59,573 bases of DNA, taken from positions 1-59,573 of the forward strand of contig JAFZUH010000199.1 of assembly GCA_017618435.1 (NCBI GenBank), written 5' to 3'. The number at the start of each line of letters is the position of its first letter. Position 1 is the stretch's first letter. Source of the stretch: Bacteroidales bacterium. Its GTDB lineage: Bacteria; Bacteroidota; Bacteroidia; Bacteroidales; WCHB1-69. The position numbers were made by a program, and so were the translations under genes. The notes beneath the pieces are model-generated. The model was not told the DNA's origin, searched no databases, and worked only from the letters and a program-made list of their open reading frames with translations. Positions 4,844-58,452 of the stretch are shown here, one piece after another.

Positions 4844-5764
4844 TCATTTTTTATTCGATTTGTAATTAACATTCATTCTTTTTATGATCTGTGCCATATT
4901 CTTCCTCAACTCCTTCGGTTCCAGCACCTCCACACCGTCCCCGAACGAGAGCACATCCTGCCGGAAATCATAATCGGTTGTCAGGTAGTATGAAAAAATG
5001 CTATAGTCCTTGTGGGTTTCAACTTCCTGCTGGCTGGTGTGCAACGGCAGGGAGCGGAAATAGAGCACTTGCTTGCCGTAAGCTTTCAACAACACTCTTT
5101 CCCGCTTCATGTTCGGATAGACACGCACACCATAGATATTACGGAAATAATCGTCTGCCGTAAACTCTTCCGGCATCGTAAAATCGTCCGGAAGAATGTC
5201 CACCATGGTCATGCGGTCCAGTGCATACATGTGCGGCCCGTCCGGATCGCCCTTGTATGCATACAGATACCAGCGGCGCTTGAACTCCTTGAGAAAATAG
5301 GGTTCCACAATCATCGCTTCCTCTTCTGTTTTATAATAGCTTTTGTATCGGATTTCCATCTTTTTGCCATCCCGTATCGCCTGAATGATATCTGCAAGGT
5401 ATTTGTGACGGGAAGGCACATTTTCAAAGAAGATGCGGTCACGGAGATGGGCACTGTCGTTGAGGAGACTGCTCAAACACAATGCGTCCAGCATCCATTC
5501 CTTTACGCTGTTGCCGCATAGGTCGTCTAAGTTTTCAATGTAATAAGTGTTGTGGCTTCTGTCGCAAGCGATATCAATGCCGAAAATATCGGAAATGGCG
5601 GACACATGGTTCGCAAATGTGCGGGTAGCAAGTTCCTTCCCTTCGTCGTTGACGGAACTTCTCTTCCACAAAGCCTTTATTTCCTTAAGGGTCAGCGGCC
5701 CATGGCTCTGCAAGGTTTCCAAAAGCCAGATGTACGATTTAAAATAATTCTTTGCCATAATCAA
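4844..5764 (-). CDS. WYL-domain transcriptional regulator (N-terminal wHTH)
   Basis: 306 aa. The N-terminus is HTH-like (GPLTLKEIKALWKRSS...RTFANHVSAISDIFG) and the central signature is FKRRWYLYAY. It is the first gene of the co-directional block. The start could be M3 at 5758. Confidence 0.8.
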   Translation of the reverse strand: MIMAKNYFKSYIWLLETLQSHGPLTLKEIKALWKRSSVNDEGKELATRTFANHVSAISDIFGIDIACDRSHNTYYIENLDDLCGNSVKEWMLDALCLSSLLNDSAHLRDRIFFENVPSRHKYLADIIQAIRDGKKMEIRYKSYYKTEEEAMIVEPYFLKEFKRRWYLYAYKGDPDGPHMYALDRMTMVDILPDDFTMPEEFTADDYFRNIYGVRVYPNMKRERVLLKAYGKQVLYFRSLPLHTSQQEVETHKDYSIFSYYLTTDYDFRQDVLSFGDGVEVLEPKELRKNMAQIIKRMNVNYKSNKK

Positions 5765-51402: not shown

Positions 51403-51544
51403 GGAATTTCTCCCGTACGGACGATGTGTACATCGTCCCCTTACAAAGGAGCGGGAAAATTCCTGTACCGACGATGTGTACTTCGTCCCCTTGTAAAGAC
51501 GCACAATCGTGCGTCTCATCAATAAAACAATAAAACTTAACATT
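51403..51544 (+). repeat. hairpin-leader element, copy A (composite)
   Basis: An outer dyad GGAATTTCTCCCG/CGGGAAAATTCC encloses hairpin 1 (GGACGATGTGTACATCGTCC, 51419-51438). A degenerate second hairpin 1 lies at 51469-51488. TTGTAA follows, then hairpin 2 (AGACGCACAATCGTGCGTCT, 51497-51516), then the leader CATCAATAAAACAATAAAACTTAACATT and ATG 51545. Confidence 0.9.
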
Positions 51545-51991
51545 ATGACAAACCTAACCATTGAACAAAAAAAAGATTACGCCAAACAACTCTTTCTCAA
51601 CGATCCCGGAATTACGCAAGCCGAAATCGCTGAAAAAGTTGGCGTCTCCAAAGTAACCATCTGCAAATGGGTCAAAGACGGCAAATGGCAGGAATTGCAA
51701 GCTTCTTTATTGATAGGCAAGGAGGAACAACTCGCTCGCCTTTACAAACAGTTGCGACTCCTCAACGATGCCATCGAAAACAAACAAGACCAAAAATTCG
51801 CCACCTCTAAAGAAGCCGATGCCATTCTAAAACTTACCGTCGCCATCAAAAATCTCGAAACCGAAACCAATATCGCAGAAAAAATGGCTACAGGCAAAGA
51901 ATTTCTTGCTTTCGTAAGAAAAACATCCGGCTTCGAGCTTAGCAAAGATGTCGCCAAATTGTTCAACGCTTATATCAAATCTTGTTTATAA
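51545..51991 (+). CDS. terminase small subunit-like HTH protein
   Basis: 148 aa from M13 of the track ORF. It has the HTH ITQAEIAEKVGVSKVTICKWVK and a TAATG overlap with the large subunit gene. Confidence 0.55.
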   Translation: MTNLTIEQKKDYAKQLFLNDPGITQAEIAEKVGVSKVTICKWVKDGKWQELQASLLIGKEEQLARLYKQLRLLNDAIENKQDQKFATSKEADAILKLTVAIKNLETETNIAEKMATGKEFLAFVRKTSGFELSKDVAKLFNAYIKSCL

Positions 51992-53526
51992 TGGCCAAGC
52001 TCAGAAAACCTACCGACAAGCAGCTCCTTCAAGACTGGGAAGCTTACTACAATCAGTTTATTGCCGATGTGGAAGTTGACTCTTCCGAAACCGAATTCCA
52101 GAAGCAGCAACGCATCACCCGCTTGGAAGCATCTCCCGAAGACTGGTTCAAATACTATTTCCCCAAATATTGCACGGCCGAACCGGCTTCATTTCATATC
52201 TCCGCCACCAAACGCCTCCTCGCTCATCCCCGTTGGTACGAAGTCCGGGCGTGGAGTAGAGAGTTGGCAAAATCCGCCCGCTCCATGTTCGAAGTCTTGT
52301 ATCTTGCCTTAACCGGAAAAGTATGCAATTTCCTCCTCGTCTCCAACTCCTTCGACAATGCCTGCAGACTGCTCTTGCCTTTTATGATGCAGTTGGAAAA
52401 AAATCTCCGCATTATCAACGACTACGGCGAACAGCAAACCATCGGCCACTGGGAAGCTAATGAATTTATTGCCAAATGCGGTTGCTCATTCCGGGCATTG
52501 GGAGCAGGGCAGTCGCCCCGTGGTACCCGCAACGAAGCCAAACGCCCTGATTTCATTCTCATTGACGATATCGATACCGACGAGGAATGCCGAAATCCTG
52601 ACCGTATCAAGCAAAAATGGGACTGGATAGAACAAGCCTTAATTCCGACAATATCAGTATCAGGTGACGCCCGCATATTGTTCAATGGCAACATTATCGC
52701 CAAAGACTGTTGCATCGCCCGTGCCGGTAAAGTCGCCGACAAGTTCGACATTGTCAACATCCGCGACAAACACGGCAAGAGCTCTTGGAGCAAAAACACC
52801 GAAGAGGATATCGACTTTATCCTTTCCAAAATCTCCACCCGTGCCGCTCAACAGGAATACTTCAATAATCCTCTCTCCGAAGGTGACGTCTTCAAAGAAC
52901 TCACCTTCGCCAAAATACCCAACTTAAACCGCTTCAAACACATTATCGTCTATGGTGACCCTTCTCCCTCCAACTCCAAAAACAAAGCCGGCTCCATGAA
53001 AGCCATTGCCGCTATTGGTGTTTTGGACGGTATTTACTATGTCATTGCCTGCCGCGTAGATAGAGCCACCAACGCAGAATTTGTCGATTGGTTCTACCTC
53101 ATCAACCAACAACTCGGCAGCACCTCTGCTCAAATCTACAACTTTATTGAAAACAACAAACTACAAGACCCCTTTTATCAACAGGTATTTATTCCTTTGT
53201 TTGTTGCCAAAGCCAAAGAAAAAGGCTATTATCTCAATATTGTTCCCGATACAAGAATTAAGCCCGACAAATTCAGCCGTATTGAAGGCAACCTCGAACC
53301 CCTCAACCGCAATGGAAGACTCCTCTTCAACGAAGCTGAACACAGCAATCCTCACATGCAGCGGCTTGAGGAACAATTCCTCCTCATCACCCCGCAACTA
53401 AAAGCTCCTGCCGACGGCGTAGATGCTGTCGAAGGTGCCGTCTTTATCGCAACTCAAAAATTAAGACAAACTTCCGCCGAACAGCTGCTCATCGGCAACA
53501 GACCTAAAAACAAACGTAGAGTATAA
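51991..53526 (+). CDS. terminase large subunit
   Basis: 511 aa with a Walker-A-like WSRELAKSA and a Walker-B-like PDFILIDDIDTDEE. The size and position are typical. Confidence 0.75.
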   Translation: MAKLRKPTDKQLLQDWEAYYNQFIADVEVDSSETEFQKQQRITRLEASPEDWFKYYFPKYCTAEPASFHISATKRLLAHPRWYEVRAWSRELAKSARSMFEVLYLALTGKVCNFLLVSNSFDNACRLLLPFMMQLEKNLRIINDYGEQQTIGHWEANEFIAKCGCSFRALGAGQSPRGTRNEAKRPDFILIDDIDTDEECRNPDRIKQKWDWIEQALIPTISVSGDARILFNGNIIAKDCCIARAGKVADKFDIVNIRDKHGKSSWSKNTEEDIDFILSKISTRAAQQEYFNNPLSEGDVFKELTFAKIPNLNRFKHIIVYGDPSPSNSKNKAGSMKAIAAIGVLDGIYYVIACRVDRATNAEFVDWFYLINQQLGSTSAQIYNFIENNKLQDPFYQQVFIPLFVAKAKEKGYYLNIVPDTRIKPDKFSRIEGNLEPLNRNGRLLFNEAEHSNPHMQRLEEQFLLITPQLKAPADGVDAVEGAVFIATQKLRQTSAEQLLIGNRPKNKRRV

Positions 53527-53527
53527 A

Positions 53528-53588
53528 TGTAAAGACGCACAATGGTGCGTCTCCAAATAAAACAAACAACAAATTAAAATAAACAAAA
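53528..53588 (+). repeat. hairpin-leader element, copy B (hairpin 2 only)
   Basis: TGTAA, then AGACGCACAATGGTGCGTCT (53533-53552), then an A-rich leader and ATG 53589. Confidence 0.85.
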
Positions 53589-53822
53589 ATGATTAAAGTA
53601 TGGAAACGATTTTTCAGGTACATGCAGGTACGAAACGCCATCCGTCATGCCGACAGGATGAAAAAATTAACAGGAAAACAACACTTTGTTATACAAGTAT
53701 TCAACAAAATAAGGGTGTACGACCGCTCTCACATCAATTGGCTCATCGCCAAGAAGGTGCTGCACCCTCGTCTCAAAAACCATTACGAACTTACTAAAAT
53801 TTGTATCTATTACACTCGGTAA
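53589..53822 (+). CDS. small highly basic phage protein
   Basis: 77 aa, K/R/H-rich, flanked on both sides by hairpin-leader elements. Confidence 0.5.
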   Translation: MIKVWKRFFRYMQVRNAIRHADRMKKLTGKQHFVIQVFNKIRVYDRSHINWLIAKKVLHPRLKNHYELTKICIYYTR

Positions 53823-53906
53823 GGACGATGTCACATCGTCCCCTTGTAAAGACGCACAATCCTGCGTCTCATCAATAAAACAATAAAGTAATAAAACATT
53901 AATATT
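53821..53906 (+). repeat. hairpin-leader element, copy C
   Basis: GGACGATGTCACATCGTCC (53823-53841), CCTTGTAA, AGACGCACAATCCTGCGTCT (53850-53869), then CATCAATAAAACAATAAAGTAATAAAACATTAATATT and ATG 53907. Confidence 0.9.
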
Positions 53907-54327: not shown

Positions 54328-54436
54328 GGTGCCTGAGCCTGCCGAAGGCACCTCTGTACCGACGATGTGTACATCGTCCCCTTGTAAAGACGAACAATCG
54401 TGCGTCTCATCAATAAAACAATAAAACATTAACATT
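54328..54436 (+). repeat. hairpin-leader element, copy D (with an extra 5' hairpin)
   Basis: GGTGCC-N13-GGCACC (54328-54352), CGACGATGTGTACATCGTCC (54360-54379), CCTTGTAA, AGACGAACAATCGTGCGTCT (54388-54407), then CATCAATAAAACAATAAAACATTAACATT and ATG 54437. Confidence 0.9.
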
Positions 54437-55744
54437 ATGGCAATAAAACATTCTAAACCTAAAAAACCGGACAATGTAATCGTCCACAACATCAACATCA
54501 TCAATCCTCCCCACAATACGCAGGATATTCAAATGTGGAAACAGGCTATTCGTGCCTTTGAAAATATCAACAATCCCTCACGTATGCTCTTGTACGACCT
54601 CTATGATGACATCCTCTTAGACGGTCAAATTGAAGCTACTTGGGGCAAACGGCAGGATGCCGTCCTCAACCAGGAACTCATCTTCGTCCGCGATGGGGTA
54701 GAAGACGAACAAATAGGACGTCTGCTCAATTCTCCCGACATGCGGGTCATTGTCAAAGAGCTGCACAACGCCATCGCTTGGGGTTATACCCTCATTCAGA
54801 TTAACAACATCTATTTTGATGAGACTGAAGAAGTGTATAAAATAGATTTCGACCTCATCCCGCGTAAGCACGTTCATCCGGAAGACGGCTTTGAATGTAT
54901 CAGCCGCCAGCAATCCATGGCTACCAAAGACTGGATGTATATGGAGCAGCCTTTGGCCAACTATATGCTTTGGGCAGGTGAGCCTTACGACAAAGGCCTT
55001 TTCGCCAAGGCCGCTCAATATGTCATCTACAAACGCGGAGGCTTCGGCGACTGGAGCCAGTTCGCCGAAATGTTCGGCATGCCATTCCGTGAACTCATCT
55101 ACGACGACTACGATGAAGCCACCCGGGCAAAACTCGAACAAGGTCTCCAAGAATGGGGAGCTGCCTGTTATTCCTTGCACCCTCGTAGCACAGAATTAAA
55201 AATACACCCCACCGGCGGTTCCACCGGCTCCAACGAAGTTTATGACAAACTCATTGCCGCCTGCGACGCTTCCATCTCCAAAACCATCCTCGGCAACACC
55301 CTCACCACCGAACAAGGCGAAAACGGTGCAAGAAGCCTCGGAGAAGTCCACAAAGAGGTGGAAGATGCCAAGACCGCCAGCGACAAGCAGTTTATTCTCG
55401 CTATCCTCAACACCAAGTTCAGAGCCATACTCAAACATTTCGGCTTTAATATCTCCGGTGGCGATATCTGGTACCGCTCACAAGGTAAAGATTGGACAGA
55501 ACTCCAAACCAAATGGAATGTCATCAACTCCATCTCCGACAAACTTCCTGTTGATGACGACTATATCTACGAGGAATTTGACATACCAAAACCCGACAAC
55601 TATGAGCAATTGAAACAGGAATTGAAAATGCAACATTCTTTCAACCCCTTTGAAAGCTCTTTGCAAAACCCTTTAAACAAGGAAAAACCTAATACCGGAG
55701 AAGCTACCAATTGGCTCAACAGGATAAAAAGTTTTTTTTTCTAA
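54437..55744 (+). CDS. portal protein (Mu gp29 / DUF935-like)
   Basis: 435 aa, positioned between the gp36-like and MuF-like genes. Confidence 0.6.
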   Translation: MAIKHSKPKKPDNVIVHNINIINPPHNTQDIQMWKQAIRAFENINNPSRMLLYDLYDDILLDGQIEATWGKRQDAVLNQELIFVRDGVEDEQIGRLLNSPDMRVIVKELHNAIAWGYTLIQINNIYFDETEEVYKIDFDLIPRKHVHPEDGFECISRQQSMATKDWMYMEQPLANYMLWAGEPYDKGLFAKAAQYVIYKRGGFGDWSQFAEMFGMPFRELIYDDYDEATRAKLEQGLQEWGAACYSLHPRSTELKIHPTGGSTGSNEVYDKLIAACDASISKTILGNTLTTEQGENGARSLGEVHKEVEDAKTASDKQFILAILNTKFRAILKHFGFNISGGDIWYRSQGKDWTELQTKWNVINSISDKLPVDDDYIYEEFDIPKPDNYEQLKQELKMQHSFNPFESSLQNPLNKEKPNTGEATNWLNRIKSFFF

Positions 55745-56886
55745 GGACAGGCAATAGCCTGTCCGTCCGAAACGAATTGGCACAATTAGACACCCTCTAT
55801 TTTCAAAACAGTTCCTTGACTGTCTTGGATACTTTGCGGACCTTTCCCGTTCTCTACAACCTTTCTAAAAAGGAACTCTATCAGAAAATTCTTTCCGATA
55901 TTGCTAACGGCAATACAGGAACCGTACATCCGGATGCCTATAAAGCCTATGCCCAGAATTTCCGGCATGCTGTCAACGGTGTTTTCTCTGATAATGAAAA
56001 ATATGCCTACTTGCAAGCACAATTCAATGCCAACGTCTCTCGGTTCGCCGCCTATAAAGCTTATTGGCTTACCGAACAGCTCAAGCAATACCACCAAGAA
56101 AGTCCCGACAACTTTGACAATATCGGCAAAGCTATTATCAATACTTTCAACCGCTATCAGGCTGCTGAATACAATACCGCTGTCGCCCGGACAAGAACCG
56201 CCAAACAATGGACAGATTTCACTTCCGACCCGACAGCAAACATGCTCTATCCTAACTTGAAATGGCTGCCATCTCGCTCGGCCAACCGCAGAGAGGAACA
56301 TATCCCTTTTTACGGCTTGGTACTTCCTAAAACCGATGAATTTTGGCAGCACAACCAGCCCGGTAACCTATGGAACTGTAAATGCGACTGGGAGGAAACC
56401 GACGAACAACCTTCCTCTTATATTCCAAAAGACATCTATGCAAAAGGTTTGGAAGGTAACCCCGCCCAAACAGGACAGATTTTTACCGACAAGGCAAGCT
56501 ATATCAATAGAGCCGGAAAGAAAGTGGAATCTTACGCTTTAAAAATAACAAGAAAAGATAACCTTGACTGGGCTAAAAATCATATAAAAGGGAAAATTGT
56601 TAAAAATAATCAATCCAATTTACCTATAAATATTTCCACAAGAGGAATAAAGGAATATCTTAACCAACCTTTTGATGAATATTATGTAAAGAATGAATTG
56701 ATAAGGCAAATTCCGAACATTTTAGAAAATGCAAAATACTTGAAACAGACTGTTCATGAAGGTAAAAAGTCTGAAATTTTTGAAATCAAATTCAAAAACA
56801 AAATATGGTATGTAATTGCTAATTGGCAAAAAGATGGCAAATTGTATTTTTATAGTATTACTGATAGTGAGAAAGTTACAACATAA
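55711..56886 (+). CDS. MuF / SPP1 gp7-like head morphogenesis protein with an extra C-terminal domain
   Basis: FNRYQAAEYNTAVARTRTAKQWTDF and LKWLPSRSANRREEHIPFYGLVLPKTDEFWQHNQPGNLWNCKCDW are MuF hallmarks. Only TTG start candidates exist (55711, 55777). The last ~125 aa are AT-rich. Confidence 0.7.
   Translation: MAQQDKKFFFLRTGNSLSVRNELAQLDTLYFQNSSLTVLDTLRTFPVLYNLSKKELYQKILSDIANGNTGTVHPDAYKAYAQNFRHAVNGVFSDNEKYAYLQAQFNANVSRFAAYKAYWLTEQLKQYHQESPDNFDNIGKAIINTFNRYQAAEYNTAVARTRTAKQWTDFTSDPTANMLYPNLKWLPSRSANRREEHIPFYGLVLPKTDEFWQHNQPGNLWNCKCDWEETDEQPSSYIPKDIYAKGLEGNPAQTGQIFTDKASYINRAGKKVESYALKITRKDNLDWAKNHIKGKIVKNNQSNLPINISTRGIKEYLNQPFDEYYVKNELIRQIPNILENAKYLKQTVHEGKKSEIFEIKFKNKIWYVIANWQKDGKLYFYSITDSEKVTT
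55732..55764 (+). other. candidate -1 frameshift signal: T TTT TTT heptamer, 6-nt spacer, 8-bp GC-rich hairpin
   Basis: The portal frame reads AGT TTT TTT TTC TAA. The hairpin GGACAGGC-AATA-GCCTGTCC lies at 55745-55764. The MuF-like ORF is in the -1 frame and has no ATG. Confidence 0.4.
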
Positions 56887-57002: not shown

Positions 57003-57188
57003 ATGAAAAACAGAAATATTAAAGGGAAATGTAAGCAATGTCGCTACTATAATATCAACCACTGCATGCTGTCAATGCAATGCAACGGCCAATACTTTTT
57101 AAAAAGTACGGACGATGTGCACATCGTCCCAACACACCACAATGTACGGACACGCCATGGTACGTCCCACAATACTAAAAATAAATAA
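57003..57188 (+). CDS. questionable small Cys-rich ORF
   Basis: An A-rich leader precedes the ATG, and the first 35 aa carry CxxC..C..C. The 3' half reads through hairpin-leader copy E. Confidence 0.25.
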   Translation: MKNRNIKGKCKQCRYYNINHCMLSMQCNGQYFLKSTDDVHIVPTHHNVRTRHGTSHNTKNK

Positions 57189-58381: not shown

Positions 58382-58452
58382 CCCCTACAGACACACAATC
58401 GTGCCTCTAATCAATAAAATAATAAAACATTAACAACTAAATAAACATAACA
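58381..58452 (+). repeat. hairpin-leader element, copy F (degenerate)
   Basis: AGACACACAATCGTGCCTCT (58389-58408, two stem pairs lost), then AATCAATAAAATAATAAAACATTAACAAC... and ATG 58453. Confidence 0.7.

Follow-up and report, generated by a model that had tools for sequence, protein, structure and literature searches.

The locus described here lies on a contig of a Bacteroidales bacterium (JAFZUH010000199.1, assembly GCA_017618435.1), of which the whole 59,573-nucleotide (nt) stretch is called the window below. From ~51.4 kb onwards, the + strand carries the late operon of a Mu-like prophage, and two adjacent genes of this operon, encoding the portal protein and a MuF-like minor head protein, are the subject of this work. 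In a domain profile search, the portal open reading frame (ORF) at 54437–55744 was identified as PF06074 Portal_Mu (E 3.9e-69), and a PHROG profile search also matched it to phrog_113 portal; the ORF that follows gave a weak PF04233 match together with PF18798 LPD3, and it matches several PHROGs, including 'minor head protein and DNA pilot'. The MuF ORF is read in the -1 frame relative to the portal gene, and the portal/MuF junction is very likely a conserved site of -1 programmed ribosomal frameshifting (PRF), at which a 94.6-kDa portal–MuF fusion would be made. The features of the junction are collected in Table 1.

Table 1. Positions of the genes and predicted signals at the portal/MuF junction of the window.
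Feature	Position	Strand	Description
Portal gene, 0 frame	54437–55744	+	435 amino acids (aa), 50.3 kDa; Mu gp29/DUF935 type; end ..NWLNRIKSFFF*
Open -1-frame stretch before the slippery site	55693–55737	+	Overlaps the last 15 portal codons; contains TTG 55711
Slippery site, T9 run + C, two in-phase heptamers	55732–55741	+	Seen in the sequence; kept in relatives
MuF-like minor head protein, -1 frame	55738–56886	+	Shift site to stop codon 56884–56886; Phage_Mu_F-like and LPD3 domains
Spacer TTC TAA, 6 nt	55739–55744	+	Holds the 0-frame stop codon 55742–55744
Predicted stimulatory hairpin GGACAGGC-AATA-GCCTGTCC	55745–55764	+	8 bp, 6 of them G-C; perfect
TTG, proposed alternative MuF start	55777–55779	+	Not conserved; leader GC-rich and structured

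The sequence of the portal gene ends in AAA AGT TTT TTT TTC TAA, and its run of nine T residues spans 55732–55740. Two heptamers, T TTT TTT (55732–55738) and T TTT TTC (55735–55741), are both in X XXY YYZ phase with the portal frame, as in a canonical -1 signal; the hairpin starts 6 nt past the first of them, adjoining the stop codon, and this spacing to a stable structure falls within the expected ~5–9 nt. Both the slippery heptamer at the portal end and a perfect, GC-rich hairpin 6 nt downstream had been described in the initial annotation, which was made from the letters alone, and both were recovered at the same positions. The hairpin has an energy of -14.7 kcal/mol and is the most stable equal-length window within ±1500 nt, while the 50-nt junction region has a folding energy of -17.4 kcal/mol (z = -5.0) that none of 200 shuffles equalled. 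A Rho-independent terminator was also considered for this hairpin and rejected, because no U-tract lies past it on either strand (GTCCGAAACGAA on the + strand, TTAGAAAAAAAAA on the - strand). By a rough estimate, a T-run would stand beside such a hairpin by chance with p ~0.05 for this window alone; the decisive evidence is the comparison with relatives.

For this comparison, 36 loci were gathered by portal homology (55–95% identity), 13 of them IMG/VR contigs and 23 contigs of GTDB genomes; nearly all are Bacteroidales metagenome-assembled genomes, many of them from rumen samples. Eight further loci were added: L037 and L038, which are human-gut Bacteroides prophages; L039; Hankyphage (L040, BK010646); a Porphyromonas gingivalis phage (L041); Flavobacterium phage pippi8-1 (L042); Elizabethkingia phage TCUEAP3 (L043); and phage Mu (L044). 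A cassette consisting of a T6+C heptamer followed by a GC-rich hairpin is present in 42 of the 44 loci and absent from phage Mu and pippi8-1, which answers the check on related prophages that had been proposed for the T-run and hairpin. All 36 portal-homology loci carry T TTT TT[C/T] and a GC hairpin, and the cassette also occurs in L037, L038, Hankyphage, the P. gingivalis phage and TCUEAP3. In 40 of the 42 cassette loci the run begins at the third position of a portal codon (NNT TTT TTC), and the remaining two, termed type C below, have the T-run in phase 0. Most loci have a 6-nt spacer, within a range of 3 to 7 nt as measured by the stem finder.

The per-locus hairpin table, which covers all loci, contains 34 distinct hairpin sequences, such as GGACAGG/CCTGTCC, GCCCAC/GTGGGC, GGGCGTTG/CAACGCCC, GCCCTCA/TGAGGGC and TCCCCC/GGGGGA; the position and the pairing of the predicted hairpin are conserved, and its sequence is not. 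Among all equal-length windows up to 1500 nt to either side, the hairpin ranks first in stability, or within the top 0.4%, for 38 of the 40 loci analysed. In a covariance-model alignment, 98.9% of cells were paired and 6 of 6 modelled pairs had double-sided changes, with a covariation score of 0.657 against 0.113 in shuffles (reached in 0 of 500) and 0.09–0.16 with the partners slid, with the caveat that this alignment was fitted to the structure and includes 4 off-target rows. The model was built from 9 sequences of equal geometry and at E ≤ 1 missed most GGACAGG-type hairpins, the window's among them, so that the covariation count draws mainly on the GCCC/TCCCCC hairpin types. MAFFT with RNAalifold yielded no consensus structure for 25 cassettes, as loops of differing length put the 3' arms out of register.

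The heptamer is also retained against codon bias. At the other Phe positions of these portals, TTT and TTC are used in ratios of 0:16 (L006), 0:19 (Hankyphage) and 1:14 (L002), and the codon before the heptamer always ends in T, even where NNC dominates. Over 24 loci the summed log10 probability is -23, a value that overstates independence since the loci are phylogenetically related, although its direction is unambiguous. A heptamer conserved at synonymous sites together with a covarying structure is what a canonical -1 signal presents. These data bear on the explanation that the T-run and hairpin are kept for reasons other than recoding, such as the FF motif, mRNA processing or stability, a folding pause or a recombination joint: portals with 0-frame tails conserve FF and the xxAP..GG peptide after it, a mosaic boundary lies ~55 nt upstream, and the cassette persists in in-frame fusions and in Hankyphage, where MuF needs no -1 shift. 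However, peptide conservation leaves synonymous third positions free, hairpins of unrelated sequence keep a constant distance from the heptamer and yet differ in the peptide they encode (RTGNSLS, SPPSVG, GALRATP..), the lack of a U-tract on both strands excludes an intrinsic terminator, and the -1 frame of the in-frame fusions encodes a conserved W-x-S-P-H tail, which fits recoding there too. We regard a purely non-recoding role as very improbable.

The second line of evidence for a -1 shift concerns how MuF is begun. Its -1 frame is open from 55693, past a stop at 55690, and the translation from the shift site reads F-LRTGNSLSVRNELAQLDTLYF..; the conserved N-terminal motifs LDxLYF..FP are common to it and the -1 ORFs of relatives. 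The only start-like codons (ATG, GTG or TTG) through codon 100 are the TTGs at 55711, 55777, 55816, 55825 and 55834; six TTGs make up all start-like codons before codon 178, where the first ATG (56242) lies within the MuF domain match, in agreement with the earlier statement that this frame is open across the junction with TTG starts and no ATG. The open stretch that precedes the slippery site is probably not translated in the -1 frame, and the corresponding overlap with the portal gene is 0 to 186 nt long in relatives.

In 33 loci (29 of the 36 of the first set plus L037, L038, L040 and L043), which are called type A, MuF has the same -1 position relative to the portal frame as in the window. 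In all 31 type A loci analysed, the window included, the -1 ORF opens no later than the T-run (in L035 exactly at it); the 0-frame stop is mostly one codon past the heptamer, within the spacer, and the conserved MuF N-terminal motif LDxLY[FY] begins 30–60 nt past the T-run. No ATG, GTG or TTG occurs between the upstream -1 stop and the LDxLY motif in 16 of these 31 loci, and the 15 that do have one correspond to the ~51% that chance predicts for ~15 codons. Start-like codons are thus at chance frequency, and therefore there is no selection for an initiation codon; judged from the reading frames, the conserved MuF N-terminus is reachable only from the portal frame. An open -1 ORF that encodes a conserved protein with no conserved start is again a property of canonical -1 signals. 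Gene callers and GenBank annotators have put MuF starts 150–280 nt downstream of the portal stop, for example in L038, L039 and TCUEAP3, and such annotations leave conserved coding sequence unannotated; in TCUEAP3 (OK632026.1, 3205–3510) the annotated 'minor head protein' starts 276 nt past the portal stop, and the -1 ORF is open from before the heptamer. The MuF N-termini in public records look mis-annotated in many of these genomes, with a start too far downstream or a seemingly non-coding gap. Separately, the MuF -1 ORFs of two type A loci, L006 and L010, are truncated after 137 and 60 codons, respectively, and L009 has an in-frame TAG at 4850 within an otherwise intact portal; these defects are probably prophage decay or assembly errors.

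Initiation of MuF at TTG 55777 had also been proposed. In this explanation MuF is a separate protein begun there (or at 55711), maybe by re-initiation after the portal stop, with the hairpin as a generic junction element. Both TTG codons exist, the annotated MuF ATG of Hankyphage corresponds in position to TTG 55777 to within one codon, L037 has TTG/GTG there, and hairpins are found at other junctions of the operon. Against this, 16 of 31 relatives have no start-like codon before the conserved MuF sequence, the rest being at chance level, and the codon homologous to TTG 55777 is CTC, TTA or CTG in close relatives. The leader of TTG 55777, which contains the stable hairpin, has 14 A+T in its 30 nt, versus 20–27/30 before the ATGs of eight other late genes, most of which carry a AATAAAACAATAAAAC-type leader; MuF is the sole late gene here without an ATG after an A-rich leader, whereas the other eight have both. 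Moreover, the hairpins at the other junctions form a family of repeated sequences within non-coding leaders, in contrast to the hairpin at 55745, whose position is conserved in 42 loci with varying sequence, and a separate MuF leaves the conservation of the heptamer against codon bias unexplained. TTG 55777 was judged to be incidental, and independent initiation of MuF is considered unlikely.

The length of the T-run raises two further explanations. In the first, RNA polymerase slips on T9/A9 and adds one U, giving an mRNA subpopulation with portal and MuF in frame. The run of nine T reaches the homopolymer length relevant here (~9 or more A/T), at which bacterial RNA polymerases slip appreciably, and the product would be identical (SFFFL). 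UUUUUUU is also under-represented in E. coli genes, possibly for such slippage (PMC4066793). However, only L014 of the 42 cassette loci shares T9, and the rest have T6+C with the same frame, spacer and hairpin; since these relatives have only U6, the conserved mechanism cannot depend on a long homopolymer. The hairpin at 6 nt has, in addition, the geometry of ribosomal stimulation rather than that of slippage by the polymerase. As the general mechanism, polymerase slippage is quite unlikely, but in the window and L014 slippage on U9 (+1 U) could add to the same product.

In the second, the run has been miscounted by assembly or sequencing error, and the true run is T10 (or T7) within one in-frame gene, as in the fusion protein P0001 and in L015. 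Homopolymers are error-prone and in-frame fusions occur in close relatives, and the initial annotation had raised this alternative. It was rejected after base-by-base comparison with T6 relatives, which share the -1 arrangement: L001 reads TTTTTTC TTC TGA GGACAGG and the window TTTTTTT TTC TAA GGACAGG, which are of equal length and differ by substitutions only (C to T, and the stop codon). The same -1 split with the stop in the spacer is present in 33 independent assemblies, L014 (83% portal identity) also has T9, and the in-frame relatives differ in their MuF module and its phase. Since the relation of the frames is independent of how long the homopolymer is, no miscount is required, and one would disturb the register. 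A miscount is therefore extremely improbable.

A -1 programmed frameshift accounts for these observations in the following way. Most ribosomes would read AGU UUU UUU UUC and stop at UAA, yielding the 50.3-kDa portal protein. A fraction would pause as the hairpin 6 nt downstream enters the mRNA channel, when U UUU UUU (or U UUU UUC) is paired with Phe-tRNAs in the P and A sites; both tRNAs would re-pair one base upstream while the hairpin resists unwinding, and reading would continue through CUA AGG ACA GGC.., across the hairpin and into the MuF frame. The conceptual product is a fusion of 816 aa and 94.6 kDa (..IKSFFFLRTGNSLSV..), close to the ~815 aa estimated initially for a -1 slip. It has been reported that U_UU.U_UU.Y is among the efficient -1 motifs in E. 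coli, the tetramers U_UU.C and U_UU.U coming next after A_AA.G (PMC4066793). The purpose of the shift may be to supply sub-stoichiometric MuF, with its LPD3 cargo domain, tethered to the portal C-terminus and packaged at the portal vertex inside the capsid; later release of MuF by the prohead protease is possible. Going by established portal structures, the C-terminus would face the capsid interior, and a fusion would then guarantee the packaging of MuF at the portal vertex. SPP1 gp7 and Mu gp30 are portal-associated 'DNA pilot' proteins present in few copies, which fits the tethering idea, and the Mu portal is C-terminally processed. The initial proposal of a -1 slip producing a portal–MuF fusion is supported by comparative evidence, namely the conservation of the cassette in 42 of 44 loci, the covariation, the codon bias, the 16 of 31 relatives without a start, and the in-frame fusions described below.

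Several points weigh against a frameshift, in addition to the limits given above for the covariance alignment and the codon-bias sum. The TTGs at 55711 and 55777 are present in the window, and low-level independent initiation or re-initiation may take place there. The FF dipeptide and an AP..GG-like linker are conserved as peptide, which could add to the conservation of the T-run and of GCCCC/GGGGC; peptide conservation nevertheless explains neither the choice at synonymous sites nor the unrelated hairpin sequences. To our knowledge, -1 PRF has not been demonstrated experimentally in Bacteroidota. The remaining points come from Hankyphage, a widespread Bacteroides phage (PMC12135933), in which the cassette (BK010646.1, 3824–3875) lies 42 nt upstream of the annotated MuF ATG. 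This ATG overlaps the portal stop (ATGGTGA) and could start MuF independently even though the cassette is present; either the cassette is not always the sole route to MuF, or it has a further role. L038, a close relative, has CTG in place of that ATG, and the conceptual trans-frame sequence of Hankyphage itself reads ..NWLKRFF-RESPGERRGSFR-MVINDLYR... Mass spectrometry of Hankyphage virions found MuF peptides in the 250–85 kDa gel fraction, but the same fraction also contained peptides of small proteins, Gam and the adaptor (PMC12135933).

Fusions of the two proteins are known as single ORFs. The window itself is not an in-frame fusion, since its 0 frame ends at TAA 55742–55744 and MuF is in the -1 frame, but in a protein search the best matches of the conceptual 816-aa fusion were the single-ORF portal–MuF fusions P0001–P0012, which cover 80–100% of it. 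P0001–P0011 are 858–873 aa long and 55–66% identical to the window fusion; P0012 (880 aa) covers 100% of the query and has the same LPD3-type MuF; portals of ~450 aa come after the fusions in the match list. Similarly, phrog_35074 (890 positions) is matched by the window portal at 5–371 and by the window MuF at 444–665, collinearly. Judged from these predicted proteins, portal followed by MuF in one polypeptide is an established architecture in the clade. A portal–MuF fusion has also been noted in Microbacterium phages (PMC7302621), in line with the earlier remark that such fusions are described in phages.

Seven of the cassette loci are in-frame fusions, called type B (L004, L015, L018, L022, L033, L034 and the Porphyromonas phage L041); the proteins P0001–P0011 are also of this type. 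The in-frame loci carry a different MuF module, in another phase relative to the T-run, and they keep the heptamer, the spacer and the covarying hairpin. Their -1 frame runs for 21–26 codons from the T-run, encoding FFR[AV]xP..GG[VI][EN]W[KEQ]SPH.., and then stops; the W-x-S-P-H motif is common to rumen and Porphyromonas phages, whose portals are each 36–77% identical to the window's. This suggests that the region is dual-coding in type B and that a -1 shift there would give a portal-only protein. Type C comprises L005 (2485–2545), L039 (3797–3860) and the 'shorttail' portals within P0013–P0036 (~450 aa; clusters of up to 42 member sequences). These portals enter the T-run one base out of phase (TCG TTT TTT CGN), and their 0-frame C-terminus, ..FFRRSSFKRSDWECPHE*, has the motif seen in the -1 frame of type B, here as W-x-C/S-P-H-x*. 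Their MuF belongs to the +1 frame and lacks a start codon ahead of a conserved RVWNGExDYWD motif; a +1 or -2 shift on the U6 run would be required to express it. In phage Mu, a -2 shift has been documented in tail genes (PMC5009743).

Taken over types A, B and C, the cassette may be a general two-way switch between portal-only and portal–MuF products in Bacteroidota Mu-like phages, a tentative idea towards which we lean somewhat less than away from it. If it is true, the 0 frame gives the portal and the -1 frame the fusion in type A, type B is reversed, with -1 giving a portal with a W-x-S-P-H tail, and in type C the 0 frame gives the W-x-C/S-P-H tail and MuF arises only by +1 or -2. Frameshift efficiency would then set the number of portal subunits, out of 12, that bear a MuF/LPD cargo, internal and possibly ejected, and evolution would flip the default product.

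The late operon around the junction consists, in order, of a small HTH/terminase-like gene (ATG 51545), the large terminase, a 77-aa ORF, a Mu gp36-like gene, portal, MuF, a Phage_tail_S-like gene and further genes. TTG 51982 is the listed start of the large terminase; the small HTH gene that precedes it has a stop overlapping an ATG at 51991 (TAATG; region 51982–51993), and this ATG is a more plausible, coupled start. A repeated module is present in the operon, consisting of hairpin A GGACGATG-TGTA-CATCGTCC (its 5' arm also written (G)GACGATG), CCTTGTAA, hairpin B AGACGCAC-AATN-GTGCGTCT, an A-rich leader CATCAATAAAACAATAAAAC.. and ATG. Its sites are 51411–51551, 53530–53587, 53816–53904, 54352–54442, 57102–57139 and 58386–58443; five late genes are preceded by the full module or by hairpin B without A, and a lone hairpin A occurs at 57110, within a 61-aa ORF that is itself doubtful. 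As a repeat family, the copies keep their sequence and do not covary, and the module could act in the leader or in processing, or mark a recombination joint. Pattern searches found copies of hairpins A and B only at 51.4–58.4 kb, with none at 55745; membership of the hairpin at 55745 in this family was rejected, since no copy is there and that hairpin lies inside -1 coding sequence.

Among 40 loci compared, the A/B modules are common to one other locus only, L015 (JAEEUY010000091.1). The window and L015 are ~99% identical up to ..CAAAACCCTTTAAAC, break at 55678/55679 of the window (5242–5275 in L015) and are then fully divergent; the divergent part of L015 opens with a copy of the hairpin-B module (GTAAAGACGCACAATGGTGCGTCTCACCAA) that is in frame in the fused ORF and encodes VKTHNGASHQH of P0001. 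With a hairpin-B copy at the divergence point, the module marks a mosaic boundary at which different MuF cassettes were exchanged.

No description of a portal/MuF frameshift was found in the literature searched, including the PRFect paper and the Hankyphage and P. gingivalis phage papers, a coverage that is incomplete; the searches brought up in-frame fusions only, one for DUF935 and frameshift returned no paper, and the word 'portal' does not occur in the first 300,000 of the 429,602 characters of a 2016 recoding review. The mechanism is of a known kind, while the gene pair and the breadth of its occurrence appear to be new: the signal spans rumen Bacteroidales prophages, Porphyromonas gingivalis phages, an Elizabethkingia phage and Hankyphage. 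MuF/SPP1-gp7-type proteins are portal-associated minor head proteins, many carrying toxin or LPD cargo domains, and a frameshift that tethers a fraction of portal subunits to MuF would be a simple mechanism for both stoichiometry and targeting. It would be the third conserved recoding site in the structural modules of tailed phages, beside the tail chaperone and the capsid, and a tractable natural -1 PRF signal for Bacteroidota, in which initiation and recoding are little studied.

Among known systems, the orfA–orfB junction of IS3/IS911 insertion sequences (IS) resembles that of the window in having an in-phase heptamer with a downstream structure, overlapping ORFs that are fused, and a downstream ORF without an efficient start of its own; in IS, short and long products are made, and the heptamer is mostly A AAA AAG, with U UUU UUC in some elements (PMC4066793). 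The IS systems differ from the window in that they concern transposition genes, many have an upstream Shine–Dalgarno (SD)-like stimulator, and their stimulators are often pseudoknots. Use of an SD-like stimulator is not expected in Bacteroidota. The tau/gamma site of E. coli dnaX is like the window in its heptamer, ~6-nt spacer and stable hairpin, in the shared N-terminus of its products and in the stop near the site; unlike that proposed for the window, the dnaX shift truncates the protein rather than extending it and has an SD-like upstream enhancer, and the in-frame type B relatives would be nearer to dnaX. The lambda G/GT tail-chaperone (Xu, Hendrix and Duda 2004) and T7 10A/10B capsid sites are programmed frameshifts in phage morphogenesis that set a fixed ratio of a short to a C-terminally extended protein, and it is their position, not their sequence, that is conserved (PMC7302621; PMC5009743). 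They involve other gene pairs than the window, and lambda G/GT needs no strong hairpin. Finally, the in-frame fusions of Microbacterium clusters EA3/EA5/EA8 and EB, of phrog_35074 and of the 853-aa Porphyromonas phage 'portal' have the same portal–MuF order but are single ORFs, whereas the window needs a change of frame, and the Bacteroidota in-frame versions keep the heptamer and hairpin.

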